A stretch of DNA of 64,000 nt from Anolis carolinensis (taxonomy: Eukaryota): contig NC_085842.1 in the NCBI RefSeq assembly GCF_035594765.1, positions 16,406,782 to 16,470,781 of the forward strand. Direction: 5' to 3'. The notes below the pieces were generated by a model. The model saw only the letters and a list, made by a program, of their open reading frames with translations. It did no database searches and was not told the origin of the DNA. The stretch's first letter is position 1. Every line of letters begins with the position of its first letter. The position numbers were made by a program, and so were the translations under genes. Below are positions 16,071-23,881 of the stretch, piece by piece.

Positions 16071-16806
16071 TATTAGTGTCTATAATTTCATGTCCACATA
16101 CAGTGTCTATAATTTCATGTGCTCCTGTGATACTCTGCTGAATATAGGTTTGTTCTTATTGCAAGTACAGGGTATTCTTTGGGATTACTCTAATATAATG
16201 ATTTATCATTGACATTGTATATCTTTGTGTTTGTGGGCAAATATTGCTTTGGATTCAGTCAGAAACCCATTTACTTAATAAAAACTAAAGAGCACCAACC
16301 ACTAATATATATATACACACACATATATAGTGTGTGTGTTTATATGTGTGTGTGTGTGTGTATAAAAAATGTAGTGGTTGGTGCTCTTTAGTTTTTATTG
16401 AGTAAATGGGTTCCTGACTGATATATATACAGTAGAGTCTCACTAATCCAAGCCTCGCTTATCCAAGCCTCTGGATAATCCAAGCCATTTTTGGAGTCAA
16501 TGTTTCCAATATATCATGATATTTTGGTGCTAAATTCATAAATACAGTAATTACAACATAACATTGCTGCGTATTGAACTACTTTTTCTGTCAAATTTGT
16601 TGTATAACATGAAGTTTTGGTGCTTAATTTGTAAAATCATAACCTAATTTGATGTTTAGTAGGCTTTTCCTTGATCAGTCCTTATAATCCAAGATATTCG
16701 CTTATCCAAGCTTCTGCCGGCCCGTTTAGCTTGGATTAGTGAGACTCTACTGTATATAGTTGGTCCTCTGTATCCACAGATTCTCTGTCCGTGAGTTCAG
16801 TGGCCA

Positions 16807-17134
16807 TGTCAGGGTGCAACAAAGAACAGCATCATCAAAGCTGGTCTTTTCGCAACCTGACTACAAGAGGACAGAGGAAGGAGACCATTTGGCAGGATAG
16901 GCTGATTTATGACAGGGTCTGGTCTTCAAACGTGGGAAAGGACCAAAGGAAAGGGAGGTGTGGATGGAGAAGGAGGAGGGGGGAGGCAACAACCCCATAT
17001 ACTGAGGGGAAAAGCGGAAGAGAGTCAGTAAAAGCTTTTGCAGTCATCTTGGCAAGGCGGATTCAATAAAGTTTTCCATTGCGACCAGCGGTGTGAGCCT
17101 ATTTCTTGGGTCCTACACCTTCCAGGAGCGGACA
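16807..17134 (+). repeat. 5' LTR
   Basis: Direct repeat of 22161-22488. TATA-like CATATAC at about 16996, Inr-like TCAGT at 17025-17029, AATAAA at 17065-17070. Confidence 0.97.
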
Positions 17135-17136
17135 TT

Positions 17137-17147
17137 AAGCTTTTACT
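17137..17147 (+). promoter_or_regulatory. Self-priming primer binding site (non-tRNA)
   Basis: AAGCTTTTACT, 2 nt after the LTR, is the exact reverse complement of AGTAAAAGCTT at 17027-17037 inside the LTR. Confidence 0.75.
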
Positions 17148-17197
17148 CCCTTTTTTTTCCGGCTCATCCCGTGAGGAAAGGTCTCTCCGGTGAGAGC

Positions 17198-18568
17198 ATG
17201 AACCCTGATGGAGGAGAAACCATGAAGGAATTCCTCTTCCTGGAAGAAGAACAGGCGAACCCTCGAGGTGCAGAGGAGTTGAGAGAGGAAAGGAACCCAT
17301 CGCCCGCATTGAGCGAAGGGGGGACAGACCCCTCGGACCCGTCGTGGAAGCCGCTGACCTCCACCCAGTTACCCGCAGGCAGGGGAGTGACGGTGAGACG
17401 GAAGATCCAGATGGGAGGCGATTGGCAGCGAGACGGAGAGGGAGCCCCGGAGATGAGAAGGATGGAGAGGAGATTAGATGCGATGGAGAAAATGTTTGAA
17501 ACTTTCTCTCGACAGATGGATCTGATGCAGCGGCAGGTAAACGAGTCCTGGAGGGCGACAGTCGAGCAACGGGAGCAGAGGAGAGGGCTGCCCGGGAGAG
17601 GGACTGAACCCCGTCCCTTTGCCGGGGAGGGTCCACAGGACTATGTGGATGAGATGCCTCAGCAGGGCACATCAGTTTTCCCCACGGGCCTGTCGGGAAG
17701 GAGCCAAATGCCTGGGAAGGGAGAATTTCGGGTGAAGTTCAACGGGGACCCCAAACAGCTGTCTTATTTCATTACAAACGTAAGACACTTCATGGAGGAT
17801 TTTGGGGACCAATTCCCTTCAGAAAGCGCAAAAATCCACATGGTGGGGGCAAACTTGAAAGAAGCAGCTGCAGACTGGCTAATGCAGATGTATGATACTG
17901 GTGCCCGGGAGCTAGCCTGTCTGGAGGATTTCCTAAGAGCCCTCCGTGAGAGATTCGAAGACCCTTTGGCAGAGGAGAGGGCGAAGGCCCAACTCAAAAG
18001 GATATACCAGGGAGGAAGGACAGTGTCAGAATATGCCCTGGAATTTAAAGCCACAGCGGGGAAGATCAGGGACTGGTCCGACACCACCAAACTGGAATAT
18101 TTCAGGGCTGGTTTACGCTCTGAGGTGCTCGAGTGGGCTTTACACAGAGGAAATCCAAGAGACTTGGAGGACTGGATTTTGCTAGCGGGGCGCGTGGAGG
18201 TGGACCAACAGCAAATCTCTCGTCGTCCAAGGGAGAGCAACAGAATCAAACCCCCGACAGCAGCAACACGGCGCTTCTCCCCTCGTCGCGGAAGGTCGAC
18301 CAGCAGGGAGAGGAGAGCAGGGAGGGGGGCCTGCTTCGCTTGCGGCCGCGAGGGACATCGAGCGGCAGAGTGTCCGAAAGGGACAGGCGTGGAGACAAAA
18401 GGAGAGAGGCTTCACAGCCAGAAGCCACCCCACCAGAGCTCCAAACTAGCAAAAGGGAAAGCTGCCATGGCAACGGAAACGGCTTTAGCCCCAGGGCAGC
18501 TTCAGGCAGAAGAGATGGAGGAAGCGGAGGACCTGGAGTTACCGGGAAACGACTGGGATCTGTTTTGA
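17198..18568 (+). CDS. gag: Gag (456 aa): capsid domain plus CCHC zinc knuckle
   Basis: First ATG after the LTR. FNGDPKQLSYFI...AAADW...QGGRTVSEYALEF retrotransposon-gag motifs and CFACGREGHRAAEC knuckle. Confidence 0.92.
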   Translation: MNPDGGETMKEFLFLEEEQANPRGAEELREERNPSPALSEGGTDPSDPSWKPLTSTQLPAGRGVTVRRKIQMGGDWQRDGEGAPEMRRMERRLDAMEKMFETFSRQMDLMQRQVNESWRATVEQREQRRGLPGRGTEPRPFAGEGPQDYVDEMPQQGTSVFPTGLSGRSQMPGKGEFRVKFNGDPKQLSYFITNVRHFMEDFGDQFPSESAKIHMVGANLKEAAADWLMQMYDTGARELACLEDFLRALRERFEDPLAEERAKAQLKRIYQGGRTVSEYALEFKATAGKIRDWSDTTKLEYFRAGLRSEVLEWALHRGNPRDLEDWILLAGRVEVDQQQISRRPRESNRIKPPTAATRRFSPRRGRSTSRERRAGRGACFACGREGHRAAECPKGTGVETKGERLHSQKPPHQSSKLAKGKAAMATETALAPGQLQAEEMEEAEDLELPGNDWDLF

Positions 18569-22023: not shown

Positions 22024-22146
22024 TCCCGAAAAGGGGGGGGGGGGGTTGGACTCTCTCTCTCCTTCTTCTTTCCTTCTCCTGGCTTATTCTGCTGCTGTTG
22101 TTCTTAGATTGTCGGAACTTTGTCTCTCCCCGCAGGGTCGTCGTCC

Positions 22147-22157
22147 GAAGGGGGGAG
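22147..22157 (+). promoter_or_regulatory. Polypurine tract
   Basis: GAAGGGGGGAG, 3 nt upstream of the 3' LTR. Confidence 0.85.
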
Positions 22158-22160
22158 TCA

Positions 22161-22488
22161 TGTCAGGGTGCAACAAAGAACAGCATCATCAAAGCTGGTC
22201 TTTTCGCAACCTGACTACAAGAGGACAGAGGAAGGAGACCATTTGGCAGGATAGGCTGATTTATGACAGGGTCTGGTCTTCAAACGTGGGAAAGGACCAA
22301 AGGAAAGGGAGGTGTGGATGGAGAAGGAGGAGGGGGGAGGCAACAACCCCATATACTGAGGGGAAAAGCGGAAGAGAGTCAGTAAAAGCTTTTGCAGTCA
22401 TCTTGGCAAGGCGGATTCAATAAAGTTTTCCATTGCGACCAGCGGTGTGAGCCTATTTCTTGGGTCCTACACCTTCCAGGAGCGGACA
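22161..22488 (+). repeat. 3' LTR
   Basis: No differences from the 5' LTR found by eye. Confidence 0.97.
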
Positions 22489-23881
22489 GGCCATTTGAAG
22501 GCAGCCATAAGGCTGATATGGCTCTTCAAAATGAGTTTGACACCCTTGATTTAGACTTCTAAAATGAGTTACCATTTAAAATATTTGGGAACGTGGCAGT
22601 TGTTTCAGTTAAGTTGAGCCTCACATTTGATAAAATACTTAAACAAACAAATAAACAGGGGAGGAGTTTCTTTCCAGTTCAGAATTTTTAAGACTGACTT
22701 AATACTGCATTTAAATTTATACTTGACCTGTTCTTTGTTGGAATTGTTGACAACCTCCCACTTGAAAACAATCTAAGATGTTTTTTGAATGGAACATCAG
22801 ATTAGTTGAAATGGGAAAACCTTGACTGTTTTTTAAGCCCTACAGTATAAAACATCAGTAACAAATATCTTGTATTTTCAGTCAACCGAGGAAATCGTTT
22901 TTATAGAATCATAGAGTTTGATTCTATGAAATCACAGAGTTGGAAATGGGCCATCAAGTTCAACTCCCTGCCATGCAAGAAAAACACAATCAAAGTGACC
23001 CTCTAAATAACAATCTAAATTTTAAAATCTCTGGATTGCTGTCAGTTTTTTGGGCTGTATGGCCATGTTTCAGCAGCATTCTCTCCTAATGTTTCGCTTG
23101 CATCTGTGGCTGGCATCTTCAAAGGTTCTGTTGGCAATGAAGCAGGTTGAGTGTATATAGAATATGTGGAGTGTGTGTGTGTGTGTGTGTATGTGTATAT
23201 GTGTGTGTATGTATGTATGTATGTATGTATGTCTGTATGTATATGTGTATATATATGCATGCCTCCACTTGCTTCACTGCCAACAGAACCTCTGAAGATG
23301 CCAGCCACAGATGCAGGCGAAACATTAGGAGAGAATACTGCTGGAACATCGGCATACAGCCTGAAAAACTCTCAGCAACCCAGTGATTTTGGCCATTACA
23401 TCTTCGACAATACATTTTAAAATCTCCATGATGAATTATTGACTGTGAAGTCTTGGTGTGATGTTCAGCGTTTAAAATTTCTTCCGGTGTGTTTATTTCA
23501 GTTGCCAGATTGGGTCATCTTCTATCTAAGTGGCATGTTTTTCTAAAATCTCATTTGAGTATTTGGCAGACTGTACTTTGCAGACTCTGACTTAATAAAA
23601 GGAATAAAAATGGGAACCGTACTGTTTCAAAATAGTCTTGAGTCCTTTCCAATCATCATCTCATTTTAAATGTAGGCTTCATCACACAACCTTTAAAGAC
23701 AGTGAAGATACAATCTCAGTATTTATAAAGTGAACCATTTGAATACTTGGTAGAGCGGCAAGTATTTGAGCTGCAGAGGATGAAATGGAGCAGGAAACTA
23801 TCTTTGTTCGAGGTAGGCCTTGTCTCTTAGAGAGTAATAAAAAGCTGTTTCTTATTTAAAGGCTGGGTGCTTGCTTATATG

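Follow-up and report, generated by a model that had tools for sequence, protein, structure and literature searches.

The long terminal repeat (LTR) retrotransposon at positions 16802-22493 of a 64,000-nucleotide window of the Anolis carolinensis genome (RefSeq assembly GCF_035594765.1, contig NC_085842.1, 16,406,782 to 16,470,781, forward strand) is, we hold with high confidence, an intact and likely recent copy of a multi-copy Ty3/Gypsy family of the Tf1/sushi group (V-clade), and likely one of many dispersed insertions that came to lie in a zinc-finger (ZNF) gene cluster by a route other than the reading of trimethylated lysine 9 of histone H3 (H3K9me3). The window is that whole stretch, and all coordinates count from its first letter. 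An original prediction, made from the letters alone, had described a very young, sushi-like chromovirus of PEG10-type architecture whose position fitted chromodomain-guided targeting of the cluster. The element is real and well preserved, though unexceptional within a group already described and recently active. Its anatomy, its internal complementarities, its multi-copy state and its likely empty allele make up the observed part of this account.

The element is intact and organized as a Ty3/Gypsy retrotransposon

Alignment of the two LTRs revealed no difference over 328 positions, and a perfect target-site duplication (TSD) of GGCCA was found at 16802-16806 and 22489-22493. Between the LTRs, gag and pol are both stop-free (17198-18568 and 18124-22023), and the cis signals are present in the form of a TATA-like box at 16998, an AATAAA signal at 17065, a primer-binding site (PBS) at 17137-17147 and a polypurine tract (PPT) at 22147-22157. 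The structural description given in the original prediction was therefore borne out, down to the location within a KRAB-ZNF cluster. Eight Pfam families were matched above their cut-offs, namely Retrotrans_gag, Ty3_capsid, zf-CCHC, reverse transcriptase (RT), RNase H (RH), integrase (IN) H2C2, rve and SH3_Tf2-1, the last with an E value of 8e-19 in pol; for the aspartyl protease (PR), Asp_protease_2 lay above its cut-off and gag-asp_proteas below, and the N-terminal region of gag had no Pfam match. All catalytic motifs of pol are present, with a D-E spacing of 35 in the integrase. No env frame was found in the element, in which only 137 nt separate the pol stop from the 3' LTR. Collectively, the TG...CA ends of the LTRs, the short TSD, the PR-RT-RH-IN order and the lack of env place the element within Ty3/Gypsy (Metaviridae).

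Within gag, 41 codons at 17393-17515 are left out of three sister-copy models with RefSeq names (P0175, P0176 and P0179); in the window these 123 nt run from GT to AG and include a pyrimidine tract. This segment may be an in-frame intron whose removal takes out a helical-looking piece of the gag N-terminus, or it may be a gene-model artefact.

The family is multi-copy and the insertion is probably not fixed

At the protein level, the element's pol shares 99% identity with a cluster of five Anolis carolinensis proteins, RefSeq models of sister copies lie on three contigs of different length, and near-identical capsids are placed on chr2 and chr6 of anoCar2, with older relatives on chr1 and chr4, by the supplement of PMC11011659. 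In public contig sets the ratio of internal depth to single-locus depth was about 50 (X1), 47 (X3) and 38-43 (X7), which, read roughly because contig depth does not equal copy number, suggests a family of roughly 40-50 copies. The 64-kb window holds only one of them. A literature search returned no paper on this exact family, and it may be an unnamed one.

If 5e-9 to 1e-9 substitutions per site per year are assumed, the absence of differences between the LTRs bounds the age of the insertion to under 0.9-4.6 million years (Myr; 95%). We therefore turned to the contigs of four public runs (X1, X2, X3 and X7). In X1, X3 and X7, which stem from three studies, the sole contig over 16793-16799 matches 16732-16807 without difference and then extends for 481 (X1), 501 (X3) and 455 nt (X7) into sequence with no alignment to the LTR. 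For X1, the 3' flank out to about 22981 lies in a contig of equal depth (31.6), which ends 488 nt from the TSD compared with the 481 nt of its counterpart. An empty allele is thus likely present in three of the four runs, and the insertion is probably polymorphic rather than fixed. Because LTR identity limits the age only to under several Myr, the likely empty allele is the better sign of recency; the earlier description of the element as very young rests more on this allele than on the LTRs. Many near-identical copies together with a likely unfixed insertion indicate a recently active family. A survey of green anoles and two of their Cuban relatives counted 45,625 Gypsy insertions as polymorphic, many of them private and read as a recent burst, and found anole LTR-retrotransposon insertions to be mostly rare and young (PMC7561263).

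Several observations weigh against this interpretation. X2 has no contig over the junction at 16793-16799, which leaves one of the four runs uninformative, and 22651-22847 of the 3' flank is without cover in any run, such holes proving nothing by themselves. The empty-type contig may also stem from a second, identical copy of the target site, as could well exist in a ZNF cluster. Furthermore, at 28 of the 40 rows shown from our variant table, which has 85 further rows, the copy departs from the sequence that dominates in all four runs, and three of its pol residues, none of them catalytic, are private when compared with four longer sister proteins.

These differences raise the question of whether the copy, while recently made, is impaired or was mobilised in trans, a slightly diverged donor having been copied by the proteins of healthier members. 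Nine of the 28 fixed-looking differences are CpG-type transitions, and three LTR differences from the dominant sequence occur in both LTRs and so predate the insertion, having come with the donor RNA; these features, like the private pol residues, favour such an origin. On the other hand, both frames are open with intact catalytic motifs, 17 of the 25 coding differences are silent and only eight change an amino acid, and a sister annotated by RefSeq (P0121, P0175) has some of the same variants, suggesting a sub-lineage that was copied more than once. We consider mobilisation in trans or impairment unlikely, but worth keeping in mind.

A second concern is that the copy could be older than it appears, or could derive from a segmental duplication of the cluster, its LTRs having stayed identical through short time-depth or gene conversion. 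An age of several Myr is possible with 328 identical bases, and endogenous retroviruses in the KRAB zinc-finger protein (KZFP) clusters of the mouse multiply through segmental duplication (PMC12575710). However, the TSD is perfect, the window contains no second copy of the element or of its 3' flank, an empty allele is likely in three of the four runs, and anole insertions of this kind are mostly rare and young (PMC7561263), all of which renders this origin very improbable. We thus favour a recent insertion by an active, multi-copy family.

The element groups with squamate members of the Tf1/sushi group

To place the family we used a tree of RT, RH and IN comprising the window element and 45 of 120 hits. 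The element fell inside a clade of 12 rows (100/100), in which every named row is from a squamate (Anolis or Crotalus); the clade is separate from the fish and amphibian rows and nested among mostly chromodomain-bearing, sushi-like elements of vertebrates. Counting against a firm placement, the tree contains neither a non-chromovirus outgroup nor a named reference (sushi-ichi, Tf1, Amn-ichi or PEG10/RTL1), so membership in the V-clade rests on features and neighbours.

The features concerned are a chromodomain, albeit degenerate, at the integrase C-terminus past the GPY/F module, as in chromoviruses, and a series of traits shared with the Tf1/sushi group: the PR-RT-RH-IN order, a GPF/SH3 module, the C-terminal position of the chromodomain, a CCHC-bearing gag, a predicted self-priming PBS and a putative -1 frameshift, which predominates in the group outside fission yeasts. 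The element departs from the group in the degenerate cage of its chromodomain. By sequence, its best solved relatives for both RT (E 1e-75) and integrase (E 4e-48) are those of Ty3 from S. cerevisiae. Ty3 is nonetheless tRNA-primed, uses a +1 shift and lacks a chromodomain, differing from the element in each respect.

Closer at hand are Gypsy-1, -4, -11, -17 and -19_Ano (P0008/P0010 type) and their Crotalus relatives, which fall into the same squamate clade (100/100) and share about 50% pol identity and a similar capsid type with the element. P0010 differs from it in lacking a chromodomain. Full-length chromoviruses have been described in Anolis and other reptiles (PMC3670739), Amn-ichi of Anolis being one (PMC2774666). 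The element is probably not Amn-ichi itself, which, judged by eye, stands beside anole capsids of visibly different type in Figs S6/S7 of Henriques 2024 (PMC11011659). With such elements and the tens of thousands of polymorphic Gypsy insertions already published, the view of the element as a special find is not supported.

The anole Gypsy families P0017 (366 members), P0018 (94) and P0010 (160) belong to the same broad group and are much larger; Chromo is absent from the precomputed Pfam lists of all three.

A predicted, family-wide -1 frameshift signal joins gag and pol

Closer inspection of the gag-pol junction identified a G_GGA_AAC heptamer followed by a 6-nt spacer and a 10-bp stem (18557-18566/18576-18585), the loop of which (18570-18574) is predicted to pair over 5 bp with 18597-18601 in a pseudoknot. 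A hairpin of equal stability occurs at 4% of 679 control positions within the element, and against shuffles the whole 107-nt frameshift region is not more stable (z -0.05), so that the local stem alone stands out. Another heptamer, at 18455, was discarded as lying outside the gag frame.

We then asked whether the change of frame could be mutational damage. None of the nine indel rows from public-run contigs lies near the site, three full-length sister pol proteins begin at the protease, and a sister gag stops at the same stop codon. Because the arrangement is family-wide, damage was ruled out. The closest relatives of the family, the Gypsy-1/-4/-11/-17/-19_Ano type, carry gag and pol within one annotated frame, in contrast to the predicted -1 shift of this family, which indicates that the gag-pol junction is labile in the group. 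PEG10 uses the same heptamer with a 5-nt spacer and a pseudoknot (PMC2800197); as few heptamers are more prone to shifting than G_GGA_AAC (PMC5009743), its presence in both speaks only weakly for kinship.

The pol frame is open for 140 codons 5' of the slippery site (18124-18544), producing a long overlap of gag and pol.

The primer-binding site is complementary to the predicted RNA 5' end

The PBS is an exact 11-nt complement of 17027-17037, with about 0.0008 such matches expected by chance. In an RNA starting at 17027, a position taken from TATA spacing, the helix between PBS and self-primer closes the minimum free energy fold (z -3.05; none of 200 shuffles as stable), and a side duplex with R, upstream of the PBS, is predicted at -14.8 kcal/mol. 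Self-priming with a three-duplex "pretzel" has been described for Tf1/sushi elements (10.1101/2022.12.06.519325; the arrangement also appears in PMC6317226), and the site is predicted to be of this type. Less favourable to that prediction, the downstream pretzel duplex is interrupted and weak, although the central and upstream duplexes are present. Diverged copies have a one-base variant of the PBS, and in one run the self-primer carries a single-base change that would re-establish the pairing, the contigs concerned being unlinked. Priming by a tRNA was set aside because of the 11-nt self-complement, and not on the basis of a search against tRNAs.

By analogy with Tf1 and PEG10, the RNA would begin near 17027 and end past the AATAAA of the 3' LTR. 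Gag would be the main product, and a -1 shift at G_GGA_AAC, aided by the predicted pseudoknot, would yield Gag-Pol; with no env frame, Gag would assemble an intracellular particle. The first 11 nt of the RNA would then fold onto the PBS, be cut and prime the minus strand, with the plus strand primed by the PPT and a 5-bp duplication left by the integrase. Transcription, frameshifting, self-priming and particle formation are thus proposed by this analogy, as is the present competence of the copy.

Two further runs vary in length among copies, a pyrimidine run directly after the PBS (17148-17160) and a second purine/G run just past the pol stop (22028-22045).

The chromodomain cage is broken throughout the family

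In the last 69 residues of pol, Chromo was matched with an E value of 3.6e-5 and 24.0 bits, just under the Pfam cut-off of 25.1. The cage retains F and W, but the third aromatic is replaced by Gln and the domain is one residue shorter, as it is in three full-length sisters. Among motif-matched proteins from the window and hits 1-120, 97 of 102 have Tyr or Phe at the third cage site where this family has Q, so the aromatic cage of a type I chromodomain is incomplete.

The window contains four SCAN exons, three KRAB exons and four C2H2 arrays, and two convergent ZNF genes flank the element with their 3' ends; it begins 2.8 kb beyond the stop of one (14006) and ends 7.4 kb short of that of the other (29884). 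H3K9me3 on ZNF genes is known from mammals, and the original prediction proposed that the chromodomain reads this mark on ZNF genes and steers integration to their clusters. The proximity of the copy to the 3' exon of a ZNF gene is in keeping with this model, as are the resemblance of the domain to the HP1, SUV39H1 and MPP8 chromodomains (best E 5e-4), the retention of two of three cage aromatics and the binding of methylated H3K9 by the aromatic cage of type I chromodomains (PMC6317226). Nevertheless, the Gln and the one-residue deletion are shared by the window copy and three full-length sisters, and of 16 relatives scanned, 12 have a Chromo match, 11 of them at 32-60 bits against 24 bits here. 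P0010, the nearest anole family in the tree, spread to 160 members with its chromodomain absent on rescan, and the sister copies lie on several chromosomes with one copy per 64 kb in the cluster window. Because the cage residue is missing in copy and sisters alike and the sisters are scattered, H3K9me3-guided targeting is unsupported, and we regard it as improbable. The insertion likely did not land in the ZNF cluster by reading histone marks and instead represents one of many dispersed insertions.

The capsid fold is PEG10-like, and other anole families are the published PEG10 proxies

The capsid model (predicted local distance difference test score 86.5) had as its best match in the PDB the C-terminal domain of the PEG10 capsid (CA-CTD; 7LGA), with an E value of 4e-5, a root-mean-square deviation of 1.0 and 23% identity. 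The next capsid-fold matches were dArc1, PNMA2, Arc and Ty3, a ranking that covers a small set since few metaviral capsids are in the PDB. By sequence, the gag homolog search, with 1,636 candidates, yielded only five proteins, all of them from anoles and none of them PEG10. DUF4939, which we take to be the RTL/LDOC1 family, scored 20.8 bits in the window gag, compared with 29-52 bits in nine of the 16 relatives scanned.

Like the PEG10/RTL (Mart, SIRH) genes, the element places a protease after CA-CCHC by way of a putative -1 shift at G_GGA_AAC, followed by a short spacer and then a pseudoknot, here at the sequence level only, and PEG10 CA-CTD superposes on the modelled C-lobe of its capsid. 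Unlike these genes, it is complete and of a mobile type, with LTRs, RT, RH and IN. An intact, young amniote chromovirus of Tf1/sushi type, with a PEG10-like capsid fold and the PEG10 slippery heptamer, is accordingly what remains of the first description. A particularly close kinship with PEG10 is not supported. Henriques 2024 (PMC11011659) sampled 310 anole capsids, those of the element's family included, and used as a PEG10 proxy Gypsy-15_Ano, in which the authors note no frameshift. The PEG10/RTL outgroups listed in its Figs S6/S7 are of another capsid type and come from other anole families. The element's family is neither among these listed outgroups nor among the ten Repbase Anolis capsids in the FASTA of that study. 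Published anole families thus appear closer to PEG10 than this one, in line with a DUF4939 score below those of many relatives.

Features of the element and its surroundings

The coordinates of the element and of the two genes that flank it are collected in Table 1.

Table 1. Features of the element and flanking host genes, in window coordinates
Feature	Position	Strand	Basis or remark
5' TSD, GGCCA	16802-16806	+	sequence
5' LTR, 328 bp, TG...CA ends, same as 3' LTR	16807-17134	+	repeat comparison
TATA-like box, 29 nt before the putative transcript start	16998-17001	+	putative promoter role
Predicted self-primer, presumed RNA nt 1-11, start of R	17027-17037	+	perfect PBS complement
AATAAA polyadenylation signal	17065-17070	+	copy that would serve is 22419-22424 in the 3' LTR
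PBS complementary to the element's own 5' end, 2 nt past the LTR	17137-17147	+
gag, 456 aa, ATG 17198 to stop 18568	17198-18568	+	stop-free
gag capsid, two lobes	about 17726-18217	+	Pfam, structure model
gag CCHC knuckle	about 18329-18379	+	Pfam
-1 slippery heptamer G GGA AAC, in gag frame	18544-18550	+
Predicted H-type pseudoknot	18557-18601	+	fold prediction
pol frame (-1 relative to gag): PR, RT, RH, IN, GPF/SH3 module, chromodomain	18124-22023	+	stop-free
Degenerate chromodomain	21853-21996	+	Pfam Chromo, PDB chromodomain matches
PPT, 11 purines, 3 nt before the 3' LTR	22147-22157	+
3' LTR, 328 bp	22161-22488	+
3' TSD, GGCCA	22489-22493	+	sequence
Upstream host gene: SCAN exon 7103-7540, C2H2 array 12246-14006	7103-14006	+	not part of the element
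Downstream convergent SCAN-KRAB-C2H2 gene	29884-38183	-	not part of the element

The surroundings are rich in repeats. A 335-bp element resembling a miniature inverted-repeat transposable element, with perfect 30-nt inverted ends, occupies 16424-16758, at a distance of 44 bp from the insertion. The window contains seven more copies of nearly full length (86-97% identity) along with three partial copies, and the runs contain very many. The target site itself seems to lie in or next to a small repeat (22489-22550), many contigs matching 22489-22526 and then diverging. Further downstream, 25111-25623 holds a unit of about 158 nt repeated three times in tandem, with an ATT microsatellite in every repeat. 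Protein fragments of non-LTR retrotransposons were found at 1274-1750, 5248-5970, 36594-37540 and 56649-58058; the last is of another non-LTR type with a weak zf-RVT match, and the others are, by their motifs, presumably CR1-like. In the C2H2 array at 44909-46078 the frame ends early and the finger motif continues in another frame near 44937, making a frameshifted ZNF allele or a pseudogene possible.

Implications for vertebrate chromoviruses

A far-reaching account would have the family as a living amniote element that keeps the whole expression plan of PEG10 (capsid, CCHC, G_GGA_AAC with pseudoknot, and protease, a plan that Gypsy-15_Ano lacks) and whose cage-less chromodomain has been re-aimed at another feature of ZNF chromatin, seeding the clusters that encode its repressors; we regard this as a long shot, to be given hardly any weight. 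At a more modest level, the element provides a clean, fully annotated representative of a lineage that no longer moves in mammals but survives there as the PEG10/RTL genes. Its contribution is twofold: a PEG10-type frameshift cassette shared across the family, in a clade otherwise annotated as single-frame, and a chromodomain cage that is broken family-wide. That one family has reached dozens of copies with such a cage, and a sister family has done without any chromodomain, suggests that methyl-lysine reading is dispensable for vertebrate chromoviruses.

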